Both the position numbers and the translations under genes were made by a program. Below, in pieces: positions 7,442 to 60,084 of a stretch of 64,000 nucleotides of DNA (the first letter of the stretch is position 1; each line of letters begins with the position of its first letter). The stretch is from an uncultured Alphaproteobacteria bacterium. Lineage in GTDB: Bacteria; Pseudomonadota; Alphaproteobacteria; RF32; CAG-239. The notes under the pieces are model-generated. The model worked only from the letters and a program-made list of their open reading frames with translations, did no database searches and was not told the DNA's origin. The stretch covers positions 83,078 through 147,077 of the forward strand of contig CAKQDU010000001.1 of NCBI GenBank assembly GCA_934229625.1. The letters are read 5' to 3'.

Positions 7442-9661
7442 ATGGTTGAAGAAAATGCCAAAATAAAAGATGTGCAACTCGGCGAAGAATTGAGCAAACG
7501 TTATCTTTCGTATGCTATGTCAACCATTGTTTCACGTTCTCTGCCGGATGTGCGCGACGGTTTGAAACCTGTTCACCGCCGTTTGATGTATGCCATGCGT
7601 CAGCTGCATTTGGACCCAAAAAACGGTTTTAAAAAATGCGCACGCGTGGTCGGCGATGTTATCGGTAAATATCACCCGCACGGCGATACGGCGGTTTATG
7701 GCGCTATGGTGCGTTTGGCGCAAGATTTTTCGGTGCGCTATCCTTTGGTTGACGGGCAGGGTAACTTTGGTAATATTGACGGCGACGGCGCCGCTGCCAT
7801 GCGTTATACAGAGGCTCGTTTAACCGAATTTGCTATTGATTTGATGGACGGCTTAAACGATGATGCCGTTGATTTTATGGATACGTATGACGGCGAAGAC
7901 AGCGAGCCGGTTGTGATGCCGGCAATGGTGCCAAACTTGCTGTGCAACGGTTCTATGGGTATTGCCGTGGGGATGGCGACCAATATTCCGCCGCATAATC
8001 TGAGCGAAATCAGCGACGCTTTATTGTATTTGATTGAAAATCCTGATTGCGATGACGAACCGCTGGTACGCCGCCTAAAAGGTCCGGACTTTCCGACCGG
8101 AGGAGTGATTGTTGATTCTTTTGACACTATTTTGAATAACTATAAACAAGGCAAGGGAAGTTTTCGTATCCGCGCCAAGTGGACAACCGAAGATTTGGGA
8201 CACGGACAGTATCAAATTGTGGTAACAGAGATTCCGTATCAGGTGATAAAATCTAAACTGATAGAAAAAATCGCCGAATTACTTCTGAATAAAAAACTTC
8301 CGTTTTTAAGCGATGTACGCGATGAATCGGCGCAAGACGTGCGTATTGTGCTGGAGCCTAAAAACCGCACGGTGGACGCCGCCATGCTGATGGAGCAATT
8401 ATTCCGCCAAACCGATTTAGAAGCCAAGTTTAATATGAATATGAACGTGTTGGATTTGGATTGCGTGCCGAGAGTGATGAGTATAAAAGAAGTGCTGCAT
8501 GACTATCTGGTGCATCGCAACGCTGTTTTGCTGCGTAAAATTAAGTTCCGCTTGAGTAAAATCAATGCGCGTTTGGAAATTTTGGAAGGCTATTTAATTG
8601 CTTATTTGAATTTGGACGAGATTATCCGCATAATCCGCGAAGAAGACGAGCCGAAAAAAGTTATGATGGCGGAGTTTAAACTGACTGATAATCAGGCTGA
8701 AGCCATTTTGAATATGAAACTGCGTAACTTGCGCAAGCTTGATGAAGAACAGATTAACGCCGAACATTCCGATTTACTGGAAGAAAAAGCCAATCTGGAA
8801 ATATTGCATAATGATGAGGCGCAGCGCTGGAAGGCTATTGCCGAAGAAATTAAAAAAACTAAAGAAAAATACAGTAAAAAAACGGCATTGGGACGTCGCC
8901 GCACCGAATTTGCCGAAGCTCCGGCGGATATAGATGTTCCGGTGGAAGCGTTGATAGAAAAAGAACCGATTACGGTTATTTTGTCGCAAAAAGGCTGGAT
9001 ACGCTGCATAAAAGGTCATGCCGATTTGAACGATGAGTTTAAGTTTAAAGACGATGACGCGTTGCTCTATGCTTTGCATGCGCAGACTACGGATAAAATT
9101 GTGTTGCTGGATAACAAAGGCAAGTTCTTTAACATTGCCGCTAAAGATATTCCAAGCGGCCGCGGTTTTGGTCAGCCGGTGCGCCTGATGATAGATTTGG
9201 CAAACAATGACGATGTTGTGGCAATGTTTGTATATGAGGCTGGAACAAGCTATTTGATTGCTTCGGACAAAGGCTATGGCTTTATTGTTGATGAAAATCA
9301 TTTACTGGCGCAAACTCGTAACGGGCGTAAAATTATGAATGTCGCCGATGATGAAAATATGAAATTTTGCTTGCCGATGACCGGAGATTATGTGGCTGTT
9401 GTTGGTGAAAATCGTCGTTTACTGGTGTTTAAAGCCGAGGAAATCCCAACTATGGCGCGCGGTCACGGTGTGTTGCTGCAAAAGTATAAGGACGGCAATA
9501 TATCGGATATTCAAATTTTCAAAGGCGAGGACGGTTTCAGCTATAACCGCGCCGGAGGAGTCAGTACCGAAAAAGAGCTTATCGGCTGGCTGGGACACCG
9601 GGCGCAAATCGGTAAAGTCGTACCGTTCGGTTTCCCAAAGAACAACAAGTTTTTGAAATGA
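7442..9661 (+). CDS. parC: DNA topoisomerase IV subunit A
   Basis: 739 aa. Topo IIA A-subunit motifs ([30 protein letters not shown] active-site Tyr region). Length and lack of a GyrA box favour ParC. Confidence 0.85.
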
Positions 9662-9760: not shown

Positions 9761-10396
9761 TCAAAATTCTAATGATATATTACAATACGCGTTGGAGCTT
9801 TCACAAATTTTACAAGCCTCGTGAATTTCTTCCAATGAGGCTTGGGCAACGCATTTTATTTTCTCGTTGCAATAACTATCGCCATAAAACCATATACTTC
9901 TTCCGGTACCCCAAGCTGATGTTCTAACCGCAAAAACGACAGAGTGTAAAGGTTGTCCGAGATTTTGAAAAATAGAAACACATAGTTTGCTTGAAAAAGC
10001 CGGTGAAAAAAAGGTATCTTTTTTTGAAACTCCTCCGATGTAAAAATTTATTACTAATCTGTTATTGCGAGAAAATATATCAATCAAATTATTTTGACCA
10101 TCTTTTAAACTTTTCCAACCTTCATCATTGATAATCCAAGTTTGCGGTACTAAATTTGCAGCTTGTACATAATCATAAACAGGAACCATAGTATTATCGG
10201 AACTGAGATATTTAAGGTCATTAAGGTGTTCAAGCAATCCATAAATTAAGTAACTGTATTCTTCAATGAGTTTATTGCTTTTATATTTTTCCATGGCTTT
10301 GGAGTAACCGGCAATCCCACCGACGCTTAGTACAGCGATTATAGCAAGTACGCCGAGCATTTCTATCATGGAACGGCCTATTTGATTATATTTCAT
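9761..10396 (-). CDS. type IVb-like prepilin paralog P1 (short leader MKYNQIG, then RSMIEMLGVLAII...)
   Basis: Class III signal peptide with Glu at +5 and hydrophobic alpha1 helix. Conserved EYSYLIYGLLEHL. C-terminal FYGDxxC...CxxC...C motif. RBS AAGGAAG. Confidence 0.7.
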   Translation of the reverse strand: MKYNQIGRSMIEMLGVLAIIAVLSVGGIAGYSKAMEKYKSNKLIEEYSYLIYGLLEHLNDLKYLSSDNTMVPVYDYVQAANLVPQTWIINDEGWKSLKDGQNNLIDIFSRNNRLVINFYIGGVSKKDTFFSPAFSSKLCVSIFQNLGQPLHSVVFAVRTSAWGTGRSIWFYGDSYCNEKIKCVAQASLEEIHEACKICESSNAYCNISLEF

Positions 10397-11009: not shown

Positions 11010-11568
11010 GTTGCTGGATAACAAAGGCAAGTTCTTTAACATTGCCGCTAAAGATATTCCAAGCGGCCGCGGTTTTGGTCAGCCGGTGCGCCTGATGATA
11101 GATTTGGCAAACAATGACGATGTTGTGGCAATGTTTGTATATGAGGCTGGAACAAGCTATTTGATTGCTTCGGACAAAGGCTATGGCTTTATTGTTGATG
11201 AAAATCATTTACTGGCGCAAACTCGTAACGGGCGTAAAATTATGAATGTCGCCGATGATGAAAATATGAAATTTTGCTTGCCGATGACCGGAGATTATGT
11301 GGCTGTTGTTGGTGAAAATCGTCGTTTACTGGTGTTTAAAGCCGAGGAAATCCCAACTATGGCGCGCGGTCACGGTGTGTTGCTGCAAAAGTATAAGGAC
11401 GGCAATATATCGGATATTCAAATTTTCAAAGGCGAGGACGGTTTCAGCTATAACCGCGCCGGCGGAGTCAGTACCGAAAAAGAGCTTATTGGTTGGTTGG
11501 GACACCGCGCGCAGATTGGAAAAGTTGTTCCATTCGGATTTCCTAAAACAAACAAATTTTTCAAATAA
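11010..11568 (+). pseudogene. duplicated 3' fragment of parC (C-terminal 185 codons, no own start)
   Basis: 11010-11462 is identical to parC 9103-9555. The last ~100 bp carry mostly synonymous divergence. No ribosome-binding site or native start. Confidence 0.75.
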
Positions 11569-13376: not shown

Positions 13377-13502
13377 GTTACACCTATGTTCTAATTTTGT
13401 TCTATAATAAACAGAATATAGCGGATGTCAAGTTTTGTTTTATTTTTGTATAAATATTCATTAAATATATCAATAAATCAATAAGCTATTGTGTGTCAAA
13501 AA

Positions 13503-13680
13503 GTGTGTAAAAAAAACGACCGTTTAAAATGGACAGTTTTTAGGCTGTTTTTTATAGTCTAGCAAAGGTTGCCGGAATTTGCAATAACTTTTTATATTTG
13601 CGATGTTTTTTGTGGTTTTGTAAGAATTATCAGCGTCTTATTCTGAGTGTGTAAAAATAACGGTCGTTTTTTTTACACAA
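13503..13680 (+). repeat. 178-bp conserved upstream element bounded by 22-bp inverted repeats (gtgtgtaaaaaaaacgaccgtt / aacggtcgttttttttacacaa); second copy reverse-complemented at 59746-59923
   Basis: Direct comparison of the two loci gives about 99% identity. The right end also forms a perfect hairpin just upstream of the RBS. Confidence 0.8.
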
Positions 13681-13695
13681 TTGAGGAGGAATAAG

Positions 13696-14424
13696 ATGTT
13701 TGATGGTATAGAATTTTTCAAAGGAAAGAGCAGAGGTGAGGGTTCTGGAGTGCTTTGCGTTGCTCGCAATGACGTTTGCTCTGCCGGTCGGTCAATGATA
13801 GAAATGCTCGGCGTATTGGCAATTGTCGGCGTGTTAAGCGTTGGCGGCATCGCCGGCTACTCCAAAGCGATGGAAAAGTTTAAGCTTAGTAAGGCTCTGG
13901 ATGAATACAGCTATCTTATTTATGGGTTGCTGGAACACTTAGATGAAATTAAATATTCCACTAAATCAGGAGATGGAAATGCTACTCCTGTTGTGGAATT
14001 AGCTAACAATTTGAATTTGGTTCCTCCGACATGGACAATGATAGCAAACAATCTTGATGTTCGTCATAAAAATTTATTTGAAGACCCATATAACAATCTT
14101 TTATCTATTTACTCAAAAGACGGAAATTTGCGTTTTGATTTTATTTTAGGCGGTTCGCAATTTCCGGACGAAGGCTCTTGGATAACTGAAAATTTTTCAA
14201 CCAAATTCTGTATGGAATTGGTAAACAATGTTGTCAAACCATTGCATTCTTCTTTGGAATTTTTATTTTTTTACAGGTCAAAAGGAAGCTCATCCACTTT
14301 TTATGGTGATAAAAAGTGTTCTTCCGGCCGCAAATGTTTGAGTGATATCAGTATAAAAGAAGTGTATGATAATTGCAAACGTTGCTCAAAAAAAGAAGTT
14401 TGTTCCGTAACTATAGACTTTTAA
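13696..14424 (+). CDS. type IVb-like prepilin paralog P2 with 31-aa leader
   Basis: Strong SD GAGGAGGA before the ATG at 13696. Leader ends ...CSAG then RSMIEMLGVLAIVGVLSVGG. Conserved EYSYLIYGLLEHL and the C-terminal 5-Cys motif ending TIDF. Confidence 0.7.
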   Translation: MFDGIEFFKGKSRGEGSGVLCVARNDVCSAGRSMIEMLGVLAIVGVLSVGGIAGYSKAMEKFKLSKALDEYSYLIYGLLEHLDEIKYSTKSGDGNATPVVELANNLNLVPPTWTMIANNLDVRHKNLFEDPYNNLLSIYSKDGNLRFDFILGGSQFPDEGSWITENFSTKFCMELVNNVVKPLHSSLEFLFFYRSKGSSSTFYGDKKCSSGRKCLSDISIKEVYDNCKRCSKKEVCSVTIDF

Positions 14425-23323: not shown

Positions 23324-23794
23324 ATGAATTTTTATCGTAATTTTATGGCTAAGCATGAGGAAAAAATTTCCGGCTTTGAAGTTCTTTTAATGCTTGTTAT
23401 TACCGCATTTTTAGGAGAAATGTTTATTTTTTCCTTGTCTGTGGCGGATAGAACATCTAGCTTGGTTCTTTTTGTGATGCTTGTTTTAAGCTTGGCGTCT
23501 GTTCATTACTTTTGGGTGTTTTTGGCAGACTATAAACAGTTTGGCAAGGATATTGATGAGGCCTGTAAGCAAGCAGAAAAGAAATGGGGCGAGGCTAAGA
23601 AAAAATTTGAAAAAGAAAAGGATGCTGAATTTAGGATTGCATTTAGAAAAATTAAGCTGGATGTGGTTAAGTTTTGTATCTGTTTTCTGCCCGTAGGTTT
23701 GCTCGGGTATAAAGTTGACTGGTTGCCGATTTTTCATAATGTAAATGAATGGCTGAATGTACTGAGCAATATCTTTGTTGGAATTTTAAACTAA
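23324..23794 (+). CDS. small membrane protein, family A copy 1
   Basis: 156 aa. Paralog of 26673-27155, collinear similarity (VLFVMLVLSLASVHYFWVFLADYKQFGK... versus VLFAMLILGLLSIYWFSVFLADNKKFAK...). Confidence 0.5.
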   Translation: MNFYRNFMAKHEEKISGFEVLLMLVITAFLGEMFIFSLSVADRTSSLVLFVMLVLSLASVHYFWVFLADYKQFGKDIDEACKQAEKKWGEAKKKFEKEKDAEFRIAFRKIKLDVVKFCICFLPVGLLGYKVDWLPIFHNVNEWLNVLSNIFVGILN

Positions 23795-23799
23795 ATTTA

Positions 23800-23838
23800 A
23801 AAACTGCGGAGATATAACAATTTCCGCGTTTTTTTATT
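23800..23838 (+). terminator. intrinsic terminator
   Basis: gcggagatataacaatttccgc hairpin plus TTTTTTT. Confidence 0.6.
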
Positions 23839-23845
23839 TTAAAAC

Positions 23846-23910
23846 TTGACAAAATATCAAAATATCTTAGAGTAACTGACATAGTTTTATTTTTATGTAT
23901 AATTTAAATT
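23846..23910 (+). promoter_or_regulatory. variant promoter-leader cassette (TTGACA ... TTTTATTTTTATGT)
   Basis: Shares the -35 element and leader core with the other cassettes. Confidence 0.45.
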
Positions 23911-23918
23911 ATTAAGGT

Positions 23919-24362
23919 ATGAAAAATGTTTTATATGTTTTATTTGTTGGATGGCTTATATATTTAGGCATTCCTATGCTGTTTGTCACAAAATTTGGCA
24001 TTATAGCATTGTTTATTTTTTCTTTTTGTCTTTCGATGTTTATCGTTAGGCTAATTAAAAATAATGAAAAGTACGAGCTGTATTCGGATATTTATGATAA
24101 AATAGAAGCTGCTCGAACTGATTGTATAGATTCAGAAACAAAGATTAAGGAAATTTTGGACGAATATAATCTTAATATTGACGCATTTAAAATTGTCGGT
24201 TTGGAAATATTGAACAGAAAGTCGGAGGCGCGTACTGCTTCTGTAGATAATGAACATGCGATTCTATATACTTTGTTACTTGGGTCGTTATTTGTATTTC
24301 CGGCTATGATTGATGAGCCTTTTACGATTATAAATAAATTTTGGGAATCTGTGATATTTTAG
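23919..24362 (+). CDS. small membrane protein, family B copy 1
   Basis: 147 aa. Paralog of 26099-26545 (shared EKYELYSDIYDK / EKYELYSEVYDK and NLDI motifs). Confidence 0.5.
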   Translation: MKNVLYVLFVGWLIYLGIPMLFVTKFGIIALFIFSFCLSMFIVRLIKNNEKYELYSDIYDKIEAARTDCIDSETKIKEILDEYNLNIDAFKIVGLEILNRKSEARTASVDNEHAILYTLLLGSLFVFPAMIDEPFTIINKFWESVIF

Positions 24363-24480
24363 AACAGAGTGATAAAAAACGTGAAAGCGATAAAGTTTTT
24401 GCCGTTTTTATATATAAATCCATGCAGAAAAGAGAGATTTATCAGTTTGGCTGAAAAATCTCTTTTTTTGTGCAATTATC

Positions 24481-24557
24481 TTGACAAAAAAACAAAGATA
24501 TGTTTAATATAAAATGAATTTTGTATATTTATGTTTAATTTTTAATTCTTTTTTATT
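24481..24557 (+). promoter_or_regulatory. promoter TTGACA-N18-TAATAT plus type-2 leader (TATGTTTAATTTTTAATTCTTTTTTATTATG)
   Basis: The last 36 nt are identical to 25349-25384. Confidence 0.5.
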
Positions 24558-25199
24558 ATGATTGTAAATATTAATGCAAGTGCTGATAGTCCTGTTTATT
24601 TTGAGCTGAACGAAGCTGATGAAATTGTTATCGTCGGTGACAAAAAGGATGAGCTACTACGTTATTATATGGGTAAAAGTTTAAATGGACCTGAAATAAA
24701 ACATCCAACAAGACCGAAATTGTGTGTTGATGACTGTAAGGATTGGCATATTATCGTTACATTTAGATGCACTCAGAATGTTATGGTTAATGGTCTAGTT
24801 GCCGAGTTAACTAATGATATTGTAGTTCATGGTTTAGTTGCTGAGGTAATTAAGGAGTGTTTAAAAAAAGGTTCTTCATTTGATTACAAAGATGAAAATT
24901 TGCATTTTGTGGATGAACAAATACAGTTAAAAAGTAAGGTTGATATTCTTGAAAGATGTGTTAGACGTCTCGCAAAAATGCAAAATAAGGTTAATACTAT
25001 AGAAGGTCATATTGCTGGTTTTGCGCAAATGCAAAATAGAATTAACACACTTGAAAACTGTGTGAAACGTCTTGCGCAAATGCTTAATAAGGTTAATACT
25101 AACAGACGCTCTATTGCAGGTAATATTGATATTCTTGCACGTAAACTCAAGGATATTGAAGATGACCGTAATCACGCATACGATGATTGGCAGAGTTAA
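24558..25199 (+). CDS. coiled-coil protein with two ~35-aa C-terminal repeats
   Basis: 213 aa. Repeats ERCVRRLAKMQNKVNTIEGHIAGFAQMQNRINTL / ENCVKRLAQMLNKVNTNRRSIAGNIDILARKLKDI. Confidence 0.45.
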   Translation: MIVNINASADSPVYFELNEADEIVIVGDKKDELLRYYMGKSLNGPEIKHPTRPKLCVDDCKDWHIIVTFRCTQNVMVNGLVAELTNDIVVHGLVAEVIKECLKKGSSFDYKDENLHFVDEQIQLKSKVDILERCVRRLAKMQNKVNTIEGHIAGFAQMQNRINTLENCVKRLAQMLNKVNTNRRSIAGNIDILARKLKDIEDDRNHAYDDWQS

Positions 25200-25254
25200 A
25201 TTTGATAATGAGCCTTATTATAACTAATAGCTTTTTACCATGTATTTATCTAAA

Positions 25255-25289
25255 TTCAAAGAAACTGTGAAGTCATTATGATTTCACAG
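25255..25289 (+). terminator. intrinsic terminator (ctgtgaagtcat / atgatttcacag plus T8); identical copy at 26555-26588
   Basis: Near-perfect 12-bp stem with one mismatch, then TTTTTTTT. Confidence 0.7.
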
Positions 25290-25298
25290 TTTTTTTTG

Positions 25299-25384
25299 TT
25301 TAAAATGATTGACAAAAATTAAAAGCATCGCTAAACTAAATACATAATTTTATATTTATGTTTAATTTTTAATTCTTTTTTATT
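25299..25384 (+). promoter_or_regulatory. conserved promoter-leader cassette (TTGACA-N17-TAAACT) fused to type-2 leader
   Basis: About 110 bp including the upstream terminator is near-identical to 26550-26660. Confidence 0.6.
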
Positions 25385-25966
25385 ATGAGTGCAGAATTTT
25401 GGAATTATGTTACAAATCATCATTTGGATGTTTTTGTATTTGTTGCAATGTGTGTAATGTTTTTTTCATGTCTGCTGTTAACAATTTTATTTTTTGTTTT
25501 TAAACAAAATTATAAATGCAAGCAGCAGGAAACGGAAGGTAAACTTCTTGAGGCAGAGCGCAAGCAGCAAGAAGCGGAAAGCAAACTTCTTGAGGCAGAA
25601 CGCAAGCAGCAAGAAATCAACCAGCAGTTTCAACAAGCCAGGAAAAAACTTTTTGAGTCTGAAAAACTTCGCTTTAGCATGGTCGGAATTCCCGGAGATG
25701 AATATTGGAAAAGCGCCATTTCTAAATACGAAATATTTAGAACGTATGACGATTTTAACGATGAAAGCAAAATGAAGCGCCAAGCTATCGCTCTCCAAAT
25801 TTTTAAAATGCCGAACAAAGAGTTTACAAAGGCTGAATTGTACAAACAATTTAAGCAGTTGTATAAGGACTATATTGGCATTTTGCCTGGTTATGATGTC
25901 ATGAAGCCTGCCAAAGAATATATATTGAAATCTATTTATACCGAATTGTACTTTAGTGTAAGTTAA
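25385..25966 (+). CDS. membrane-anchored coiled-coil protein with tandem KLLEAERKQQE repeats
   Basis: 193 aa. N-terminal TM helix. 42-bp tandem DNA repeat at 25541-25615. Confidence 0.5.
   Translation: MSAEFWNYVTNHHLDVFVFVAMCVMFFSCLLLTILFFVFKQNYKCKQQETEGKLLEAERKQQEAESKLLEAERKQQEINQQFQQARKKLFESEKLRFSMVGIPGDEYWKSAISKYEIFRTYDDFNDESKMKRQAIALQIFKMPNKEFTKAELYKQFKQLYKDYIGILPGYDVMKPAKEYILKSIYTELYFSVS
25541..25615 (+). repeat. about 1.8 copies of a 42-bp in-frame tandem repeat
   Basis: aaacttcttgaggcagagcgcaagcagcaagaagcggaaagc repeated with one substitution. Confidence 0.8.
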
Positions 25967-26098
25967 TACATTACTTAATAGATATTACCCCGAATTTACA
26001 GGTGAATATCTATAGAAAAGCCAACTTTCAGGCTTTTTCTTATTGCTGCAATACGTTATATTGATTTTCAATAGTTCTCATTTTAAATTATTAAGCGC

Positions 26099-26545
26099 AT
26101 GAAAAAGTATGTATATGTTTTTGGTATCTTATGGTTAATAGCTATAGGTGTACCATTATTATTTAATCCAACCATTGCTTTAGGAGTTGTGTTTTTTCTA
26201 TCGTGCATCGGCGTTCCATTTTGGGCATCAGAATTTGAAAAAATTGAAAAATATGAGCTTTATTCTGAAGTGTATGATAAGTTATATGCTATTAAGGAAG
26301 AAAATTTTGATGTATATTATAAGACTCAAAAAATTTTAGCTTCATATAATCTTGATATTTGGACTAAGAATGCTTTAAATATCGTTAAATCTAAAAGAGA
26401 TGCTGCTTTTGAGGAGTGTCAGGAAAATTATGTAACTTTTAGATTTTCGCCTATAGTTATAATAATATGGTTTATGTTACCATTGTTTGGAAATGAGGCT
26501 CCTTTTGAAGTGGTTTGGGGATTTTGGAAGACAATGATACTTTAA
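26099..26545 (+). CDS. small membrane protein, family B copy 2
   Basis: 148 aa paralog of 23919-24362. Confidence 0.5.
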   Translation: MKKYVYVFGILWLIAIGVPLLFNPTIALGVVFFLSCIGVPFWASEFEKIEKYELYSEVYDKLYAIKEENFDVYYKTQKILASYNLDIWTKNALNIVKSKRDAAFEECQENYVTFRFSPIVIIIWFMLPLFGNEAPFEVVWGFWKTMIL

Positions 26546-26554
26546 TGATAAAAA

Positions 26555-26588
26555 AACTGTGAAGTCATTATGATTTCACAGTTTTTTT
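26555..26588 (+). terminator. intrinsic terminator, copy of 25255-25289
   Basis: Identical hairpin plus T-run. Confidence 0.7.
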
Positions 26589-26599
26589 GTTTAAAATGA

Positions 26600-26672
26600 T
26601 TGACAAAAATTAAAAATATTACTAAACTAAACGCATAATTTTATTTTTATGTTTTACTCAAATTATTAGCTT
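26600..26672 (+). promoter_or_regulatory. conserved promoter-leader cassette (TTGACA 26600-26605, N17, TAAACT 26623-26628)
   Basis: Identical core to the cassettes at 879 and 25299. Confidence 0.6.
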
Positions 26673-27155
26673 ATGATTTTGAATGAGATTAACAACTATG
26701 AGGAAAAAATTGCAAAAGAAGAAAAATACTCTGAATTTGCGTTTTTTGTAGGTGTGATTTATGTAATGTTTTTTGGCTTTGCATTTATTCATTCCCTGTC
26801 TTCAGCGGATAAAACTTCAAGTTTTGTTTTATTTGCAATGCTGATTTTAGGACTGTTGTCTATCTATTGGTTTTCAGTATTTTTGGCGGATAATAAGAAA
26901 TTTGCTAAAGAAGTATTTAAAGCTTGGAGACAAAGTGAAAAAATGTGGGGAGATGCTAAAGAAAAGTTTGACAAAGAAAAAAATGCCGAATTTGAAATTA
27001 TGAGTAAAAAAGTTAAGGGCAATATTGTTAAATTTGGAATTTTCTTTTTCTCTACTGCCTTGTTGAGTTTAAAAGTTGATTGGCTGACTGTTTTCCATAA
27101 TATGGCAGAATGGCTGCATAATTTAGGAGCTATCTTTGTTGGAATTTTCAGCTAG
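26673..27155 (+). CDS. small membrane protein, family A copy 2
   Basis: 160 aa paralog of 23324-23794. Confidence 0.5.
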   Translation: MILNEINNYEEKIAKEEKYSEFAFFVGVIYVMFFGFAFIHSLSSADKTSSFVLFAMLILGLLSIYWFSVFLADNKKFAKEVFKAWRQSEKMWGDAKEKFDKEKNAEFEIMSKKVKGNIVKFGIFFFSTALLSLKVDWLTVFHNMAEWLHNLGAIFVGIFS

Positions 27156-27161
27156 ATTCAA

Positions 27162-27198
27162 AAAAACAGTGAAATCGTTAGGACTTCACTGTTTTTTT
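27162..27198. terminator. bidirectional terminator of the same hairpin family (cagtgaaatc / gacttcactg)
   Basis: Hairpin flanked by A7 and T7, between convergent A2 and def. Confidence 0.6.
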
Positions 27199-27199
27199 G

Positions 27200-27742
27200 T
27201 TATTTCTTTTGTTCAGCTTCTCTGGCTTTGTCTTCATAGTATTTATCTAGTTTTTTTAAAAGCCTGCTGCGTTTTAGGCGGCTCAAGTGGTCAATGTATA
27301 AAATGCCATCCAGATGGTCTATTTCATGCTGCAAGATAATAGCTAAAAAATCATCAGCCAAAATCTCTTGTTCTTTGCCGTTATAGTCAACATAGCGCAC
27401 ACGGACTTTTTCGTGACGCTCCACATCGGCGCTTTGATTTGGCAGGGAAAGACACCCCTCGCAAAACAGCACAGTTTCTTCCGATTTCCAGATAATTTCA
27501 GGATTTACTAAATACATCGGGCGGCGAGCAGATAAATCTTCATCGCTTGGGTTAGGGTCTATCACAATCACACGCTTATCCGAACCGACTTGCGGAGCAG
27601 CCAAGCCAACACCCTTGTCGGCATACATTGTTTCCAGCATATCGTCTAAAAAGCGGCGCATTTCATCGTCAACTTTTTCTACCTTACGGCATTTTTGCCG
27701 CAAAACATCATCAGGATAAGTATATAATTTCAAAACAGCCAT
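27200..27742 (-). CDS. def: peptide deformylase
   Basis: GVGLAAPQVG, EGCLS and QHEIDHLDG motifs. Confidence 0.9.
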   Translation of the reverse strand: MAVLKLYTYPDDVLRQKCRKVEKVDDEMRRFLDDMLETMYADKGVGLAAPQVGSDKRVIVIDPNPSDEDLSARRPMYLVNPEIIWKSEETVLFCEGCLSLPNQSADVERHEKVRVRYVDYNGKEQEILADDFLAIILQHEIDHLDGILYIDHLSRLKRSRLLKKLDKYYEDKAREAEQKK

Positions 27743-27757
27743 TTTATTCCTTCTTTT

Positions 27758-28246
27758 CTAATTCCTAACCGCGTGGGCAATTTGGTCGAGTAGGGCATTT
27801 ACCATTTTCGGCTCATTTTTTGTAAAGAAAGCATACGCCAAATCAACGTATTCTTGAATAAGAACTTTAGTATCTACCGAAGTGTTTGCCGTTAATTCAT
27901 AAACAGCCGTCAAAAGCAAAGCCTGCATAATACCGTTCATGCGGTCATACGACCATTCGCCGCGCAGATAGGCGTTAAGAGATTTTTCCAAATCCTCTTT
28001 GCGAGATTGAATGCCGCGCACCAATTTTTCAAAATATTCTTTATCAATCGGGCCGACTTCTACCATATTTTCTTTATCTTCGCTTTCGCTGTCATCAATC
28101 ACAAAACGACCGACTTTTCCTTGCACAAAATCTTGAATAACCTCGTCAACCGGCAGCTGACTAAAGGCAATCATATAATTTGCCTGTACGGCGGCCAAAC
28201 GAGCGCCTGATTTCATTTTGATTTTTTCTGAAACAAATTTAGACAT
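27758..28246 (-). CDS. nusB: transcription antitermination factor NusB
   Basis: 162 aa, all-helical. ARLAAVQANY N-terminus and overall NusB pattern. Confidence 0.8.
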   Translation of the reverse strand: MSKFVSEKIKMKSGARLAAVQANYMIAFSQLPVDEVIQDFVQGKVGRFVIDDSESEDKENMVEVGPIDKEYFEKLVRGIQSRKEDLEKSLNAYLRGEWSYDRMNGIMQALLLTAVYELTANTSVDTKVLIQEYVDLAYAFFTKNEPKMVNALLDQIAHAVRN

Positions 28247-28247
28247 T

Positions 28248-28736
28248 TTAGTTTTCCTTAATAAGTTTAGTGTCTTCGTGATTGGTTAATTTTTCTATTG
28301 TGGCGACAAAATCTTCTAAGTCTTGCAAGGTTCGAAAATCCTTGTAAACAGAGGCAAAACGGATATAGGCTATATTATCCAAATTAGCCAACACTTCCAT
28401 AACGCTTTGTCCTATCTGTTCCGTAGATATTTCAGCTTCGCCGGAGCTTTCAAACTTACGCTGTAAAGAGGTAACGATTTTTTCCACTCTTTCGGCAGAA
28501 ATAGGACGTTTGCGAACGGCGAGGGCAATAGAACGCTCAAGCTTGTCGCGGTCAAATTCCGTTCGGTCGCCGTTACGCTTGACGACAATAAGCTCTCTTA
28601 GCTGCACACGTTCAAATGTGGTAAAACGAGAGCCGCATTCCGGACATTCACGGCGGCGGCGCACCGAAGTATTGTCTTCGGTGTTGCGAGAATCTTTTAC
28701 TTGTGTTTCTTCACAGCCGCAAAAAGGACATTTCAT
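28248..28736 (-). CDS. nrdR: transcriptional repressor NrdR
   Basis: MKCPFCG...[12 protein letters not shown] zinc ribbon plus ATP-cone. Confidence 0.9.
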
Positions 28737-30074
28737 TTAAGCCGCACTCCCATTTTTCAAAAGTTCTTCCGTCACTTGATATAGTTTAGATGAATATCTA
28801 GCTCCTTTTATAAGGACTGTATCATTATTTTGCAAGAGTTTATTTAACAAAAAATCAGCAACTTGGTCTTTATTTTCAAAGTAATACTGCTGTTTTTCGA
28901 CCGGCAACTGCGCCAACATATCTTTCATTTCCGGACAAACCCCGACAACCACATCAATAGAGCTGTTTGCCAGCTGTTTTCCTATTTCTATGTGCCGTGC
29001 TTTGGAGGTGTCTCCAAGCTCTGCCATTTTACCCAATACTACAATTTTACGTCCTGCCGTATGGGTTTTATCCAAAGCTTCTATGCCGAGTTTCATCGCT
29101 TCCGGCTGTCCTGAATAGCTGTCATCAATCAAAGTATAATGACCGTCATGAATTTTTAAATTATGATGTTTGCCTCGTCCGTCCAGCGCGCCAAAATCTT
29201 TGATATAAGAAGCGGCTTTGTTTACATCCAAACCCAAAGCCTGCACCACGGTAAGAGCGCACCAGGCGTTATATAAATATTGTTCGCCTTCTTCTTGAGT
29301 GGTAAAATTATCGGTAGGGTGGGTGTTTTTGCCAAAGGTAATAATTTTGGCGTTATGCTTTTCAGCCTCGTTTTTCAGAATATCGGCAAAGTTGGTGTCT
29401 TCATTTATAACAGCTATTCCGCCGTGTTTCGGCAAACCTTCAAAAATTTCTGCCTTAGCATGGGCGATTCCTTCAAAATTTGGAAAAAATTCGATATGCA
29501 TCGGATAAACGTTGGTAATCACGGCGATATCCGGTTTAACCAAGTTTACGGAATGAGAAATTTCGCCTTTGGAACTCATACCCATTTCAATTATGGCGTA
29601 GCTTGCATCCATATCCATCTCGCACAAACTTTGCGGCACGCCGATTTGATTGTTATGATTACCTGCTGTGGCATAGGTTTTGGCAAAATGTGAGAGCAAA
29701 AAAGCGATTTCTTCTTTGGTGGTGGTTTTGCCTGCGCTTCCGGTTAGACCGATAACCTTGCCTTTAAATTGACTGCGGTTATAAGCGCCGATTTTGCCAT
29801 AGGCTTCCAAAGTGTCCGGCACAATCAGCTGTTTTTCTGCCGGAATATCTTTCAGCAAATGGTCCACAACGACCAGAGGACAACCTTTAGCCACAACGTC
29901 TTTTACAAAATCATGTGCATCAAATCTTTCACCGCGCAAAGCTATAAATAAAGAATGCTCGTCAACTTTGCGGCTATCGGTAGATATGTTATTTATTTCA
30001 ATATCTGCGGATACCGAGTTGCTGCCAATAATTTCCGCCAGTTTTTCTGAGTTTATCTTTATCATAATCAGCAC
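28737..30074 (-). CDS. murF: UDP-N-acetylmuramoyl-tripeptide--D-alanyl-D-alanine ligase
   Basis: DSRKV...SLFIALRGERFDAHDF and GLTGSAGKTTTKE match MurF. Mur ligase middle and C-terminal domains present. Confidence 0.85.
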   Translation of the reverse strand: MLIMIKINSEKLAEIIGSNSVSADIEINNISTDSRKVDEHSLFIALRGERFDAHDFVKDVVAKGCPLVVVDHLLKDIPAEKQLIVPDTLEAYGKIGAYNRSQFKGKVIGLTGSAGKTTTKEEIAFLLSHFAKTYATAGNHNNQIGVPQSLCEMDMDASYAIIEMGMSSKGEISHSVNLVKPDIAVITNVYPMHIEFFPNFEGIAHAKAEIFEGLPKHGGIAVINEDTNFADILKNEAEKHNAKIITFGKNTHPTDNFTTQEEGEQYLYNAWCALTVVQALGLDVNKAASYIKDFGALDGRGKHHNLKIHDGHYTLIDDSYSGQPEAMKLGIEALDKTHTAGRKIVVLGKMAELGDTSKARHIEIGKQLANSSIDVVVGVCPEMKDMLAQLPVEKQQYYFENKDQVADFLLNKLLQNNDTVLIKGARYSSKLYQVTEELLKNGSAA

Positions 30075-31510
30075 TCGATGTCTTTACTGGTTTTTACATA
30101 ATTTTCCACTAATACAGTTCCGCGTTTTGCCGGAATAATTGCTCCGGGGCCGGCAATACAGCCACCTTCACAGCACATAACTTCGACCATGTTAGCATCT
30201 TCGGGAGCTTTGGCGGCAAAACGTTTTAGAAGTTTGCAGCTTTCTTTTGTCAAACCGTCAATTTTCAGCGGTTTATATTCTGCTTTGTTGCCAACTACAA
30301 ATTGCACGGCACCGGCTACGCCTCCGGAAATTGGAAAACGTCTGCCTTGAGCCGAAGATTCCACGGCGAATTTATCGGCTTCTAACGCAGTCGGGTTGAT
30401 TTGCGCGGCATCAAAGGCGGCTTGAAGTTCTTCAAAAATCAAAACATAGTCAACATTAGGATTACGCTCGGCTTCTAAACGTTTAGCCAAACAAGGTCCG
30501 ACAAATACGGTTTTGTATTCCGGAAATTCTTTTTTCATCACTTCGGCAATGTAATACATCGGACTGCCTGAGGTGGAAACATATTCTTTAAGTTCCGGCA
30601 TATGTTTTTCCATTGCCTGAACCCAAGCCGGACAGCAAGATGTAGTCATGAATTTTGCACCTTCATGCATACGTTCCACAAATTCTGCCGCTTCATTTTT
30701 AGTTGTTATATCCGCGCCTTGCGCCACTTCGACCACTTCGTCAAAGCCAAGTTTTTTGAAGGCGGTTATAACTTTTCCCAAATCGTTGCTGAACTGACCG
30801 ATAACAGCCGGCGCCAGCATGGCAATAGTTTTTTTCTGCGGATTTTTCAGGGTTTTCAAAACGTCCAGCAGCTGCGAATTGTGAGCAATTGCGCCAAACG
30901 GACAAGAAACAATACATTTGCCGCAAGAAATGCATTTATCATAGTCAATATGTTCTATTCCGTTTTCATCTTTGCTGATTGCGCCAACCGGACAAGCATC
31001 TTCACAAGGAACAAGAGCTTTGTTAATGGCATTATAAGGGCAGTTGCCGGCACAAAGTCCGCATTTAATGCAGTTATCTTGTAAAATTACTGCTTTTTTA
31101 GCGACAATGATTGTCTTTTTAGGGCAGTTTACGGCGCAAGGACGGGCATAGCAGCCGTGGCAAGCGCTGGTTACTTCATAATGAGTTGATTTGCAAGCGT
31201 CGCAAACACCTGGCAAAACCGAAACAGTTGCTTTTTCTGCTTTTGTACGGGCTAAAAAATCTTTAGCCGCGTCAGTTAGATTTTTTTCAGAATCAACGTC
31301 ACAAGGAGTAAATCCCAATGCCGCTAAACAAAGCTGCTTTACGGCATTGCGGTCTTTTTCCAGAGAGCCGCGCGCCGGTTTAGAAGTATCCGGCACCAAA
31401 TTTTCGGGGATATTTTCAATATCGGATAAATTATTTTCTAAAAAACTTTTGGCAACACTAGTTAAAACAGAAAGCCGTAAAACAGCGGCATTGTTTTTTG
31501 GATTAAGCAT
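30068..31510 (-). CDS. [FeFe]-hydrogenase-like protein (ferredoxin-like N-terminus plus H-cluster domain)
   Basis: Several CxxCxxCxxxCP ferredoxin motifs. H-domain motifs L1 TSCCPAW and L2 GPCLAKRLE. L3 is EVMCCEGGCIAGPG, which deviates from the canonical MACxGGCxxGGGQP. LGFDEVVEVAQGADIT segment. Confidence 0.7.
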   Translation of the reverse strand: MLNPKNNAAVLRLSVLTSVAKSFLENNLSDIENIPENLVPDTSKPARGSLEKDRNAVKQLCLAALGFTPCDVDSEKNLTDAAKDFLARTKAEKATVSVLPGVCDACKSTHYEVTSACHGCYARPCAVNCPKKTIIVAKKAVILQDNCIKCGLCAGNCPYNAINKALVPCEDACPVGAISKDENGIEHIDYDKCISCGKCIVSCPFGAIAHNSQLLDVLKTLKNPQKKTIAMLAPAVIGQFSNDLGKVITAFKKLGFDEVVEVAQGADITTKNEAAEFVERMHEGAKFMTTSCCPAWVQAMEKHMPELKEYVSTSGSPMYYIAEVMKKEFPEYKTVFVGPCLAKRLEAERNPNVDYVLIFEELQAAFDAAQINPTALEADKFAVESSAQGRRFPISGGVAGAVQFVVGNKAEYKPLKIDGLTKESCKLLKRFAAKAPEDANMVEVMCCEGGCIAGPGAIIPAKRGTVLVENYVKTSKDIEC

Positions 31511-31675
31511 AAGAATTAGGCCCTTTCAATAAAATCGTTCAAATTAACCTAATCTTATACAATAACTTACGTAAAAAGCAATAGTTTTTGCGGATGCGTC
31601 TACAAGCTTTTGAAGTAAAAAAATTGGTTAAGTATTATTTATCGCTGCTTAACCAATTCTCTATAAAATTTTGCT

Positions 31676-34015
31676 TCAGGCTCTGCGGAGATAAGTTCCC
31701 ATAATTTTGCGGCGGCCAAATTTTTCAAATTCCACTTCACAAGTCTGACCTTCTACGTTAGTTATTTTACCATATCCAAAACTTTCGTGATATACTTTTG
31801 TGCCAACCAGACTGGACGCTTTGCTGCTTTGATACGAATCATAATCGGCATAATCGTCGGGTTCATAGTCATAGTCGGCTTGATAACTCGGTTTGGTCGA
31901 AAACTTTGGCTTGTTGCTGTATTTGCTGCCGTATTTTTTGTATCCGCCGTTATAGCCGCTGTTGTTGCCGTATGAATTGTAACCAGAACCGCCGCCGTTG
32001 TAGCAGCTGCTGGTTTGGTTGACAATATCCAACGTCGAAGTTGGAATTTCATTCAAAAAGCGTGACGGCATATTGTTTTGCCATTGTCCGTAAATACGGC
32101 GGCAATAAGTGGTTGTGATATAGAGTTTTTGCTTGGCGCGCGTGATGGCCACATAGGCTAGACGGCGTTCTTCTTCAAGCGAGTTAGCTCCTTCTTCCAA
32201 ACTTCTTTGATGAGGAAACAAACCTTCTTCCCAGCCTGGCAAAAAAACGATGTTAAATTCCAGACCTTTGGCAGAGTGCAGAGTAATAAGCATAACCTTA
32301 TTATTGTCAACGGCGTTGTCGTTATCCATTACCAAACTGACGTGTTCCAAAAATTCCGATAAATTCGGATAGTTTTCGGTGTCGCCCATCACGCCGACCA
32401 GCTCTCGCAAGTTTTCTATACGTCCCGGAGCGTCAGCCGAAGTATCATTTTTCAGCATTTCCAAATAGCCGGACTCGTCCAAAACCTGTTCAGCCAAATC
32501 GTTTGGCGAAACAGCGTCGGACATGCGCTGCCATTCGGCAAATTTTGCCATAAGTTCGCTTAAATTTGCTTTTGCTTTGCCGCTTAATCCGCCGTTTTCC
32601 AACAAAATATGAACCGCCGCAAACATAGATGTATGGTTATCGCGAGCGGTTTCTTGCAATTTTTCAATAGTTTTGGCGCCAATGCCGCGTGCCGGCTTGT
32701 TGATGATACGCTCAAACGCCAAATCATCGCCAGGCTGCAAAATAACTCTGAAATAAGCCAATAAATCACGAATTTCAGCACGTTCATAGAATTTTGGTCC
32801 GCCGATAACCTGATATGGTATGGCTTCGCTGATAAATTTTTCTTCAAATTCACGGGTTTGAAAAGCCGTGCGCACCAAAACTGCAAAATCGGAGTAGGGA
32901 TGTCCGCCGCGGTGTAAACGCTCAATTTCAGAGGCAATCCATTTGGCTTCTTCCTCACCGCTGTAAATGCTTAACACTTTGATTTTTTCGTTAATTCCTC
33001 GGCACGCCGGACTATTTTCGGCCACGCGCAAAGTTTTTCCCAAACGTGTTGAATTGTGGGCTATCAGCGCTGAAGCGGCGTTTAAAATGTTGGCCGTTGA
33101 GCGATAGTTACGCTCCAAACGGATAACTTTGGCGTCTTCAAAATCTTTTTGAAAGCGCATAATATTTTCAATTTCCGCTCCGCGCCAAGAATAAATGGAT
33201 TGGTCGTCATCGCCGACACAGCACAAATTGCGGTATTTTTGCGAAAGCAGACGCAAAAACAGATATTGCGTAACGTTGGTGTCTTGATACTCGTCCACCA
33301 TAATATATTTGAATTTTTCTTGGTATTTGCGCAAAATTTCGGCGTCAGACATTAAAATAGTGAGCGTATCCAGCAAAATATCGCCAAAGTCAACACAATT
33401 CAGCTCCACCAAACGGGTCTGATATTTTTTATAGACTTCAAGCAAAACATTAGAACGATAATCTTGCTCTGCTTTATCAACTGTAATTCCTTTGTCTTTT
33501 AAACGAGAAATTTTTTCCATTATGCTTTGCGCCGGATATTTTTTTTCATCAATGCCGGAAGATTCGCAAATTTGTTTAATCAAGCGTTTTTGGTCGTCTT
33601 CGCCTAAAATTGTGAAATTTGAATGTAAGCCGACCACTTCGGCGTGAACGCGTAAAATTTTGACACAGATGCTGTGAAAAGTTCCAAGCCAGACGCTGTT
33701 TGCCATATCGCCGATAAGATTTTGCACACGCTCTTTCATTTCTTTGGCTGCGCGGTTGGTGAAAGTGACTACCAGACAATTCCACGGCTGAGCTTTCTGC
33801 ATGGTTAAAATGTAAGCTAGTCTGGTTGTCAGCACCTTAGTTTTTCCCGTACCAGCGCCGGAAAGCACCAAAAGCGGTCCTTCGGTTGTTTCCACGGCCT
33901 GTTTTTGCTCAGGATTAAGTTCATTCAGCCACGGCACAGAGGGGCGCAAAGCGCTGATATTGTCATAAATCTGCGGCGCGCAGCTGCTGTCGTCCAAATC
34001 AAATATGTCACTCAT
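31676..34015 (-). CDS. UvrD/Rep/PcrA-family DNA helicase with Gly/Tyr/Asn-rich linker and Tudor-like C-terminal domain
   Basis: GAGTGKT Walker A and helicase motifs I-VI. Low-complexity GGGSGYNSYGNNSGYNGGYKKYG. C-terminal GTKVYHESFGYGKITNV...VEFEKFGRRKIM. Confidence 0.85.
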   Translation of the reverse strand: MSDIFDLDDSSCAPQIYDNISALRPSVPWLNELNPEQKQAVETTEGPLLVLSGAGTGKTKVLTTRLAYILTMQKAQPWNCLVVTFTNRAAKEMKERVQNLIGDMANSVWLGTFHSICVKILRVHAEVVGLHSNFTILGEDDQKRLIKQICESSGIDEKKYPAQSIMEKISRLKDKGITVDKAEQDYRSNVLLEVYKKYQTRLVELNCVDFGDILLDTLTILMSDAEILRKYQEKFKYIMVDEYQDTNVTQYLFLRLLSQKYRNLCCVGDDDQSIYSWRGAEIENIMRFQKDFEDAKVIRLERNYRSTANILNAASALIAHNSTRLGKTLRVAENSPACRGINEKIKVLSIYSGEEEAKWIASEIERLHRGGHPYSDFAVLVRTAFQTREFEEKFISEAIPYQVIGGPKFYERAEIRDLLAYFRVILQPGDDLAFERIINKPARGIGAKTIEKLQETARDNHTSMFAAVHILLENGGLSGKAKANLSELMAKFAEWQRMSDAVSPNDLAEQVLDESGYLEMLKNDTSADAPGRIENLRELVGVMGDTENYPNLSEFLEHVSLVMDNDNAVDNNKVMLITLHSAKGLEFNIVFLPGWEEGLFPHQRSLEEGANSLEEERRLAYVAITRAKQKLYITTTYCRRIYGQWQNNMPSRFLNEIPTSTLDIVNQTSSCYNGGGSGYNSYGNNSGYNGGYKKYGSKYSNKPKFSTKPSYQADYDYEPDDYADYDSYQSSKASSLVGTKVYHESFGYGKITNVEGQTCEVEFEKFGRRKIMGTYLRRA

Positions 34016-37471: not shown

Positions 37472-38119
37472 ATGAATAAAAATGTTAAAAACAGGCAGTG
37501 CAGCGGTCGCTCAATGATAGAAATGCTGGGGGTACTATCTATCATCGGCGTGCTGAGTGTCGGCGGTATTGCCGGTTATTCCAAAGCTATGCTGAATTAT
37601 AAATTAAATAAATCTGTCGAAGCACATCGCGATGTTATATTTGGTCTAGTTCATTATAAAGATAGGCTAAAACCGGCAGAAGGTCAGAATTTAATCAATG
37701 AAGAAGTGGCATCTTTAGGACTTAAACCTAATAATTGGCGCAAAGATGGTGTTTATCTGATTGATGATATGAATAACACGATATTTATTGGTATTTATGG
37801 CGATGATAAACATATAGGATATGAAATCAGAATGCCTGCCAGAACGATTTCTCATAATGCAGATGGAAAAGTAGTGCAAAGCTATCCTTATAATTTTTGC
37901 GTGACAGCTATTAAACAACTGATTATTCCGTTGTCGGAAATGATTGAGGAATTTTCTTTTTATAGAACTAAAAGCGGTTGGGATTCTTTTTATGGCAGTA
38001 AATTTTGTGGTAAAGATTGCAAATGCATAAGTCAAATAAATGTTTCTCAGATGTTCGCCGAATGCCAGACTTGCGGTAAATCTGACGGTGAAGGTTGTTC
38101 AATTATCTTAAAATTTTAA
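37472..38119 (+). CDS. type IVb-like prepilin paralog P3 (12-aa leader)
   Basis: MNKNVKNRQCSG then RSMIEMLGVLSIIGVLSVGGIAGYSKAM. C-terminal FYGSKFCGKDCKC...CQTCGKSDGEGCSIILKF. RBS AGGAGG. Confidence 0.65.
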   Translation: MNKNVKNRQCSGRSMIEMLGVLSIIGVLSVGGIAGYSKAMLNYKLNKSVEAHRDVIFGLVHYKDRLKPAEGQNLINEEVASLGLKPNNWRKDGVYLIDDMNNTIFIGIYGDDKHIGYEIRMPARTISHNADGKVVQSYPYNFCVTAIKQLIIPLSEMIEEFSFYRTKSGWDSFYGSKFCGKDCKCISQINVSQMFAECQTCGKSDGEGCSIILKF

Positions 38120-44538: not shown

Positions 44539-45993
44539 TTATTTCCTTTCAAACTTTGCATCGGCTTCAATTTTAGCCGCAACATTGAATATTGTTCCCT
44601 CATCAAAAGGCTTGCCAATCAGCTGCATGCCATAAGGCAATCCATCTTTAGACAAACCAATCGGCAAACTAAGTGCCGGTAGTCCGGCTAAGTTTATAGA
44701 AACGGTGAACACATCATTTAAATACATATTTATCGGGTTGTTTTTCATGCTTTCATCACCGATTGGAAAAGCGGTGACAGGCGATGTCGGAGTTAGAATA
44801 ATGTCGCATTGTTTAAAAGCATTTAAAAAGTCATCATGAATTAAACGGCGCATTTTTTGAGCTTTAATATAATAAGCATCATAATAACCGGCAGACAAAA
44901 CATAAGTGCCAATCATAATACGGCGTTTTACCTCAGCTCCAAAACCTTCTGTGCGGGTGTTTATATAGAGCTTGTCCAATGTTTCTCCGTCTTTGCGCAA
45001 ACCATAGCGAATACCGTCATAACGGGCCAAGTTTGAAGATGCTTCGGCTGGCGCCAAAACATAGTATGTTGCCAAAGCGTATTTTGTGTGAGGCAAAGAA
45101 ATTTCCACAACTTCGGCTCCGCGGTCTTTCAAATAGGCAGCAGCCTTATCCCAAAACGCACAAATTTCAGGATTCATTCCTTCAGGACGATATTCTTTAG
45201 GCAGACCGACTTTCAAACCCTTGATATCTTTACCTAAAAAACTAACAAAATCAGGAACTTCTTTATTGCAAGATGTGGAGTCTTTAGCATCATATCCGGA
45301 CATGCTTTGCAATAAAAGCGCGCAGTCTTTAACATCTTTGGCAATAGGACCGGCTTGGTCCAATGATGAAGCAAAAGCTACAATACCATAACGAGAGCAA
45401 CGTCCGTATGTTGGTTTTATGCCTACACAACCGCAAAAAGCAGCCGGCTCGCGAATAGAACCTCCTGTATCGGTTGCGGTGGCGCCGGCACACATATTGG
45501 CGGCAACGGCAGCCGCAGAGCCGCCGGAAGACCCACCGGGAACCAAGTCTACATCTTTGCTCCACGGATTGATAACCGGACCGAAATAGCTTGTTTCATT
45601 GCTTCCGCCCATAGCAAATTCATCCATATTCAATTTGCCTAAAAAGATGGCGCCGTTGTCAAGCAATTTTTTTGTTACCGTAGATTCATACGGCGGAATA
45701 AAATTATCCAAAATGTGAGAACATGCTGTTGTGCGAATATTTTTTGTGCAGAATAAATCTTTGACACCCAGAGGTATTCCTTCTAAAAATCTATTTGTTC
45801 CATCAGCATAATGTTTATCGGCAATCTGCGCTTGTTCCAAAGCCTGAGCGCCGCATTCTGTCACATAGGCATTATAGCGTTTACCTACTTTCATATTTTC
45901 CAAATAAGCTTCTGTCAGCTCAACGGCGCTGAACTCTTTGTTTTTTAGCTTATCTATGGTTTCATGAACAGTTAACTTAGTAATTTCTTTCAT
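44539..45993 (-). CDS. gatA: Glu-tRNA(Gln) amidotransferase subunit A
   Basis: Amidase signature [13 protein letters not shown], 484 aa. Confidence 0.9.
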
Positions 45994-59730: not shown

Positions 59731-59745
59731 CTTGTTCCTCCTCAA

Positions 59746-59923
59746 TTGTGTAAAAAAAACGACCGTTATTTTTACACACTCAGAATAAGACGCTGATAAT
59801 TCTTACAAAACCACAAAAAACATCGCAAATATAAAAAGTTATTGCAAATTCCGGCAACCTTTGCTAGACTACAAAAAACAGCCTAAAAACTGTCCATTTT
59901 AAACGGTCGTTTTTTTTACACAC
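59746..59923 (-). repeat. second copy of the 178-bp inverted-repeat-bounded upstream element (reverse complement of 13503-13680)
   Basis: Base-by-base comparison. One substitution noted. Confidence 0.8.
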
Positions 59924-60084
59924 TTTTCATTCAAATCTCCGCCAAAATCAAGAATTAAAAGACCAATATTTTGACACTATATATTTTATAGGTTGAAAAT
60001 ATTGATAAAACTCTTGCATTAAGCAATTTTTAGTCTATGCTGAGAATAATTTATAAAAAATTATATTAAAGGATTGCTATAATA

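Follow-up and report, generated by a model that had tools for sequence, protein, structure and literature searches.

Contig CAKQDU010000001.1 of an uncultured Alphaproteobacteria bacterium raises the question of what is made from a 480-residue open reading frame (ORF) lying near the middle of a 64,000-nucleotide stretch, which we analysed as a whole and refer to here as the window. An initial annotation had placed in this ORF (positions 30068-31510) an [FeFe]-hydrogenase-like protein with a non-canonical L3 motif and upstream ferredoxin-like 4Fe-4S motifs. It had considered two possibilities, anaerobic H2 metabolism or a sensory, degenerate or Narf-like protein, both of them unusual for the apparent lineage. 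The uninterrupted ORF is indeed present on the minus strand, and the quoted L1, L2 and L3 motifs are all found in its translation. According to our results, its product is very probably a functional [FeFe]-hydrogenase of group B (B1/B3), monomeric and ferredoxin-dependent, and its host an uncultured alphaproteobacterium living anaerobically in the gut.

The protein is a group B [FeFe]-hydrogenase

Two models support membership of the [FeFe]-hydrogenase family, far beyond chance. The NCBIfam model TIGR04105 ("monomeric [FeFe] hydrogenase", FeFe_hydrog_B1, group B1) matched aa 6-458, that is, profile positions 3-459 of 462, with 495.5 bits against a curated cut-off of 450 (E = 1.3e-148). Pfam PF02906 (Fe_hyd_lg_C) matched over its full profile (positions 1-245) at aa 226-455, with E = 2.6e-61, and is preceded by 4Fe-4S (Fer4) domains. 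The group A model TIGR02512 failed, with 179 bits against a cut-off of 406. The parts of the gene are listed below.

30068-31510, minus strand: hydrogenase ORF, uninterrupted and complete, 480 aa
31217-31510, minus strand: N-terminal helical region (aa 1-98), inside the TIGR04105 model, with no invariant (cluster-ligand) cysteine
30899-31204, minus strand: accessory iron-sulfur region (aa 103-204), with 16 invariant cysteines and Fer4 Pfam matches
30146-30835, minus strand: H-cluster domain (aa 226-455), from Pfam PF02906 (Fe_hyd_lg_C)
30623-30643, minus strand: L1/P1 motif TSCCPAW (aa 290-296), from motif positions and the alignment with CpI
30473-30499, minus strand: L2/P2 motif GPCLAKRLE (aa 338-346), from motif positions and the alignment with CpI
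30143-30184, minus strand: L3/P3 motif EVMCCEGGCIAGPG (aa 443-456), from motif positions and the alignment with CpI

Within the family, the marks of group A are missing: the protein has GPC where group A has MPCxxKxxE at L2, and GPG where group A has GGGQP at L3. The P1 motif of group B most often reads TSCCP, and TSCCCP, with a supernumerary cysteine, defines subgroup B2 (bioRxiv 10.1101/2023.06.23.541094). We found TSCCP in the window protein and in 117 of 120 homologues. Together with this motif, the protein carries F336, G338 and A235 and extra N-terminal Fe-S motifs; it has only 29 residues after the bridging cysteine and hence no C-terminal small-subunit-like extension. Judged by its sequence, it is of the B1/B3 type and not B2. 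Several relatives bear the NCBI name "monomeric [FeFe] hydrogenase", and one is called "[FeFe] hydrogenase (group B1/B3)" by JGI.

The fold is that of the family. An AlphaFold2 model built from 51 homologues reached a predicted local distance difference test score (pLDDT) of 90.3, with four helices in the N-terminal region (pLDDT 94-98 past the first 10 residues). In a Foldseek search against the PDB, the top 50 matches were all [FeFe]-hydrogenases, the best being CbA5H, CpI, HydABC and DdH (E about 1e-22 for CbA5H, CpI and DdH). By sequence, the closest solved structures were CpI of Clostridium pasteurianum and other group A enzymes (E about 1e-32); none of the PDB sequence and structure matches listed was identified as a group B hydrogenase. 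At about 22% identity in the structural alignment, the window protein and CpI, a group A1 enzyme, have the same H-domain fold and proton pathway; the four cluster cysteines are common to both, as are the two proximal [4Fe-4S] motifs. The window protein differs from CpI in having neither the N-terminal [2Fe-2S] or His-ligated cluster domains nor the C-terminal extension, as well as in L2 (GPC vs MPC) and L3 (GPG vs GGGQP).

The H-cluster site and the proton pathway are conserved

We carried CpI numbering over to the window protein through a phmmer alignment and measured conservation in an alignment of 51 homologues, 53-93% identical. The active-site positions correspond as follows.

H-cluster ligands: C293, C340, C447 and C451 (CpI C300, C355, C499 and C503)
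Proton-transfer chain: C292, E273, S312, E276 and R280 (CpI C299, E279, S319, E282 and R286)
2Fe-site residues: K343, E346 and M445 (CpI K358, E361 and M497)

According to this alignment, C293 is a [4Fe-4S]H ligand, C292 the proton-transfer cysteine and C451 the bridging cysteine (CpI C503). Loss of the H-cluster cysteines had been named at the outset as the observation that would undo the hydrogenase assignment; all four are present, and all four are invariant in the 51 sequences. The remaining catalytic positions are invariant too, except for R280, which is R or K, and one sequence gapped at K343/E346. The protein departs from CpI at five positions (S232->A235, T351->F336, M353->G338, A498->C446 and G507->P455). 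Position C446 varies among the homologues (C, S or T), and G454-P455 is invariant.

These substitutions bear on the motif that had first drawn attention to the gene. L3 (EVMCCEGGCIAGPG) does depart from the group A consensus, as the initial annotation stated; the same annotation overlooked that L2 is also non-canonical, with GPC vs the MPC of group A and the changes M353->G and T351->F. Neither deviation is a peculiarity of this gene. In the best 120 database homologues L3 has the form E[VI]M[CS]C[EP][GS]GC[IV]xGP[GC], where x is mostly A or G, and GGGQP appears in none of the 25 commonest L3 variants listed among them. L2 reads F[VI]GPC in all but one of these 120 sequences. The same forms, of which the L3 one is standard in the group B1/B3 clade, recur in group B homologues of Treponema, Chitinispirillales and Clostridia, and Bacteroidales, Rikenellaceae and Melainabacteria-type sequences are likewise without GGGQP. 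Group A sequences recovered by the same scan (loci L054-L065) carry the textbook MPCxxKKxE and GGGQP. The group B2 enzyme CpIII of C. pasteurianum shows the same F/G pair for T351/M353 and an alanine for S232 (PMC12138974); it has TSCCCP, which the window protein replaces by TSCCP. Since the L2 and L3 deviations recur across group B homologues and in CpIII, we conclude that they are traits of the family. The textbook L1-L3 motifs describe group A only, and group B normally has FxGPC at L2 and (C/S/A)CxGGCxxGP at L3.

One could argue that the glycine in place of M353 at L2 marks a sensory or regulatory hydrogenase (group C or D, HydS-like), reporting H2 rather than turning it over. Sensory hydrogenases, too, have a changed residue at M353. 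In groups C and D, however, the proton-transfer pathway is lost and a signalling domain, e.g. PAS, is typical. Here the complete pathway is invariant, and the Pfam scan of the protein gave only Fer4 and Fe_hyd_lg_C, with no PAS or other signalling domain. Moreover, the M353G/T351F pair is shared with CpIII, which is catalytically active, and both the B1 model and the tree described below place the protein with group B. A sensory role is thus extremely improbable.

Accessory clusters

The upstream ferredoxin-like motifs are also real. Sixteen cysteines in ferredoxin-type spacings lie between aa 103 and 203 (C103, C106, C117, C120, C125, C129, C147, C150, C153, C157, C169, C173, C193, C196, C199 and C203), and all of them are invariant in the 51 sequences. 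Their number would be sufficient for four [4Fe-4S] clusters. The two [4Fe-4S] motifs that adjoin the H-domain in CpI are aligned to C147-157 and C193-203. For the Bacteroides group B enzymes, four accessory clusters have been predicted, two of them off the direct path (PMC12578642), and the layout of the window protein agrees with that architecture.

The gene is old in gut Alphaproteobacteria

Public metagenome contigs that carry a gene for the identical hydrogenase protein number at least 22 and reach 270 kb in length. The closest genomes are metagenome-assembled genomes (MAGs) from human gut with 91-93% protein identity; most of them bear the label uncultured Alphaproteobacteria (Hadza, Nepal, UMGS, HGM). 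For four of the 12 closest loci the bin is labelled Eubacteriales, Bacteroidaceae or [Ruminococcus] gnavus instead, probably through mis-binning. At 53-73% identity we found alphaproteobacterial MAGs from ruminant, rabbit and mouse gut, and at 40-47% homologues from Treponema, Melainabacteria, Chitinispirillales and Bacteroidales. The neighbouring genes that we compared among these genomes are the following.

27200-30074, minus strand: murF, nrdR, nusB and def, downstream of the hydrogenase and co-directional with it
28737-30074, minus strand: murF, directly downstream of the hydrogenase, with its ATG at 30065 and an alternative GTG start at 30074
31676-34015: UvrD-family helicase gene, upstream of the hydrogenase

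The location between murF and a UvrD-family helicase given in the initial annotation is therefore right. The order hyd-murF-nrdR-nusB-def is kept in every relative with 62-93% hydrogenase identity, with rearranged flanks. A neighbour-joining tree (no bootstrap; root set by four group A sequences) gathers all the alphaproteobacterial sequences in one clade inside group B, and the window hydrogenase adjoins its 93% relatives. The ratio of nonsynonymous to synonymous substitution rates (dN/dS, Nei-Gojobori) was 0.04-0.05 against orthologues 92-93% identical, at a dS of about 1. From synteny, monophyly and low dN/dS, we conclude that the gene is old in the lineage, vertically inherited and under strong purifying selection.

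We also compared the block 27161-31589 with the 12 closest MAGs (L001-L012). Divergence is uneven within it: identity was 96-100% for NusB and 93-99% for Def, against only 88-91% for MurF and 91-93% for the hydrogenase. Where the comparison was made as DNA, in seven of these MAGs, the block was 84-87% identical.

A recent horizontal acquisition into this genome would be an alternative history. The nearest relatives outside gut Alphaproteobacteria belong to gut Spirochaetes, Bacteroidales and Melainabacteria, so an ancient transfer between gut anaerobes is plausible. Against a recent one stand the gene order, identical down to 62% identity, the monophyly of the alphaproteobacterial sequences in the unbootstrapped tree, and base composition: the 2-kb windows of the gene have a GC content of 0.42, within the range of the whole window. 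We consider recent transfer very improbable, and neither it nor a decaying gene is supported by these comparisons. Nor is the gene unusual for its lineage, as had been supposed: in gut alphaproteobacterial MAGs of human, ruminant, rabbit and mouse origin it keeps its synteny and forms a single clade, and this type of hydrogenase was reported in gut Alphaproteobacteria, together with HydE, HydF and HydG, in 2016 (PMC4967309).

No maturase gene lies near the hydrogenase

The initial annotation noted that hydE, hydF and hydG are missing from the window, and our scans bear this out. The radical-SAM motif CX3CX2C was absent from all window ORFs of at least 150 aa, and Pfam scans of the larger window ORFs returned housekeeping families or families of no assigned function only. 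To look beyond the window, we turned to a 270-kb scaffold on which three window proteins, namely the hydrogenase and one from an ORF close to either end, were looked up and recovered in identical form; over roughly 8-10 kb past each window end it showed no maturase-like gene. The same holds for the relatives: in 53 related loci, no maturase was found within 10 kb of the hydrogenase among radical-SAM ORFs of 300-520 aa, where only a HemW-like gene was seen. Since this is so in all 53 loci, the genes are normally unlinked, and absence from the 64-kb window therefore carries no weight on the rest of the genome. We also scanned metagenome contigs with two HydG queries, rebuilt from PDB alignments found with E. 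coli ThiH as bait. The 80 loci kept were all closest to clostridial HydG, and none contained the lineage markers looked for (a pilin-like paralogue, described below, or a window protein above 46% identity).

One could imagine a degenerate or Narf-like protein that holds Fe-S clusters only, in a genome without HydE, HydF and HydG. Narf/Nar1 proteins have lost the 2Fe-site and proton-transfer determinants, and their function is maturase-independent. As judged without a Narf-specific model, the window protein does not resemble them, with the proton-transfer cysteine of TSCCP and K343 retained. In favour of such a protein, no maturase lies in the roughly 82 kb inspected, and Rhodospirillum rubrum has been reported among alphaproteobacteria with hydrogenase genes but without maturases (PMC4967309). 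However, residues that serve only the 2Fe subsite and proton delivery (C292, K343, E273, E276, S312 and M445) do not vary in a clade that extends down to 53% identity, dN/dS is about 0.04, and absence of maturases nearby is what the 53 unlinked loci lead one to expect. Related gut alphaproteobacterial MAGs were, moreover, reported with all three maturases (PMC4967309). With ligands and proton pathway kept, we see hardly any chance for the degenerate or Narf-like protein suggested in the initial annotation.

Proposed function and comparison with known systems

The group B hydrogenase that we propose has characterised relatives in the gut. The Bacteroides group B enzymes (B. fragilis, B. vulgatus as well as B. 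thetaiotaomicron; Welsh et al. 2025, PMC12578642) carry a bound H-cluster and evolve H2, and they depend on ferredoxin that pyruvate:ferredoxin oxidoreductase (PFOR) has reduced. Work of 2025 showed that much of the H2 in the gut has group B enzymes as its major producers (PMC12578642). The Bacteroides enzymes belong to the same group as the window protein, are monomeric, come from the gut and have the same predicted architecture, with an H-domain, two on-path [4Fe-4S] clusters and two further clusters; the host phylum differs. The Bacteroidales and Rikenellaceae homologues resemble the window protein in having no GGGQP in L3, and differ from it in detail: L047 has TSCCH, and L3 ends in GVN or GCD vs GPG here.

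By homology with these enzymes, the accessory [4Fe-4S] clusters would take up low-potential electrons, most probably from ferredoxin that PFOR reduces during fermentation. These electrons would then cross the two clusters that have homologues in CpI and reach the H-cluster held by C293, C340, C447 and C451. Protons would be delivered by the R280-E276-S312-E273-C292 relay, and the H2 released would leave the cell as a fermentative electron sink.

In the host group itself, the closest published match is the "type A" hydrogenase of Azospirillum sp. CAG:239, Azospirillum sp. CAG:260 and Acetobacter sp. CAG:977 (Degli Esposti et al. 2016, PMC4967309). This enzyme is short, without a C-terminal small-subunit-like domain and with extra N-terminal Fe-S motifs, all of which fits the window protein. 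It was found in human-gut alphaproteobacterial MAGs that also have HydE, HydF, HydG, PFOR and ferredoxin (PMC4967309). Among the homologues of the window protein are some whose names come from gut MAGs of "Acetobacter sp. 46_36" and "Azospirillum sp.", and the "type A" MAGs belong to the part of the clade at 53-59% identity. We infer that the window protein corresponds to "type A", the accessions CDB53824, CDB39301 and CCZ21919 not being among the cluster members listed.

The direction of catalysis could be questioned. The enzyme might work mainly in uptake, oxidising gut H2 and passing the electrons into ferredoxin, or be freely bidirectional, rather than serve the disposal of reductant. [FeFe]-hydrogenases are reversible, the catalytic bias of group B differs from that of CpI and CpII (PMC8924675), and the content of the window does not fix the direction. 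On the other side, the characterised gut group B enzymes produce H2 coupled to PFOR (PMC12578642), and there are no respiratory partner genes in the window. A mainly uptake or freely bidirectional enzyme is thus unlikely.

Several points weigh against a PFOR-fed, H2-evolving enzyme and temper our proposal. The roughly 82 kb inspected contain no gene for a maturase, PFOR or ferredoxin; that this genome encodes HydE, HydF, HydG, PFOR and ferredoxin elsewhere would follow from the literature on related MAGs. The closest assayed enzymes come from Bacteroides, none being an alphaproteobacterial B1/B3 enzyme, and the Bacteroidales and Rikenellaceae homologues that we retrieved are only about 40-42% identical. 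Finally, the direction of catalysis is not readable from sequence.

Gene neighbourhood

A distance of 2 nt separates the stop codon of the hydrogenase (30070-30068) from the ATG of murF (30065), and the alternative GTG start of murF (30074) overlaps with that stop codon. This arrangement, kept in relatives down to 62% hydrogenase identity, suggests translational coupling with the cell-wall gene, and hyd-murF-nrdR-nusB-def is probably one transcript. A promoter and terminator scan of 27000-32000 found sites no more numerous than in shuffled sequence, so it is uninformative on operon structure. Two bolder proposals may be made: that a conserved transcription unit begins with the hydrogenase and continues through murF, nrdR, nusB and def, which would tie expression of the main electron sink of the cell to growth-rate housekeeping, or that a lineage without HydE, HydF and HydG keeps the protein for an activity independent of the H-cluster. 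We regard both as long shots.

Other features of the window

Apart from the hydrogenase locus, we noted several repeats and gene families in the window. An exact 300-nt direct repeat occupies 9103-9402 and 11010-11309. The repeated sequence comes from the 3' part of a topoisomerase IV/gyrase A-like gene (7442-9661) and recurs where a 185-aa ORF (11011-11568) starts; its two copies flank a pilin-like gene at 9761-10396 (minus strand). A related contig (L082) is without this segment, of about 1.9 kb, and the segment looks like an insertion or duplication polymorphism.

The pilin-like gene is one of four paralogues with the prepilin-like N-terminus GRSMIEMLGVL[AS]I, at 9761-10396 (minus), 13681-14424 (plus), 37472-38119 (plus) and 59026-59745 (minus), none of which gave a Pfam match. 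Two of them lie in a 455-nt inverted repeat of 89% identity (13499-13953 and 59473-59927). The paralogue at 37472 has copies of its 5' region in the related MAG contigs L001, L005 and L010, beside or between blocks ordered differently from the window.

Six small ORFs of 147-213 aa form an array on the plus strand, from 23324 to 27155, in the lowest-GC part of the window (0.31-0.34). Most of them have an N-terminus that is hydrophobic and membrane-like, and they gave no significant Pfam family. Two gaps of the array (25259-25377 and 26550-26668) hold a diverged 119-nt element, 62-71% identical to a copy at 828-946. The gatA gene is intact at 44539-45993.

Significance

The gene at 30068-31510 is of an ordinary, already-annotated kind, reported in the lineage a decade ago, and it has little significance beyond correct annotation. 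It adds one more gut species with a group B [FeFe]-hydrogenase and supports the view of uncultured gut Alphaproteobacteria as fermentative H2 producers.

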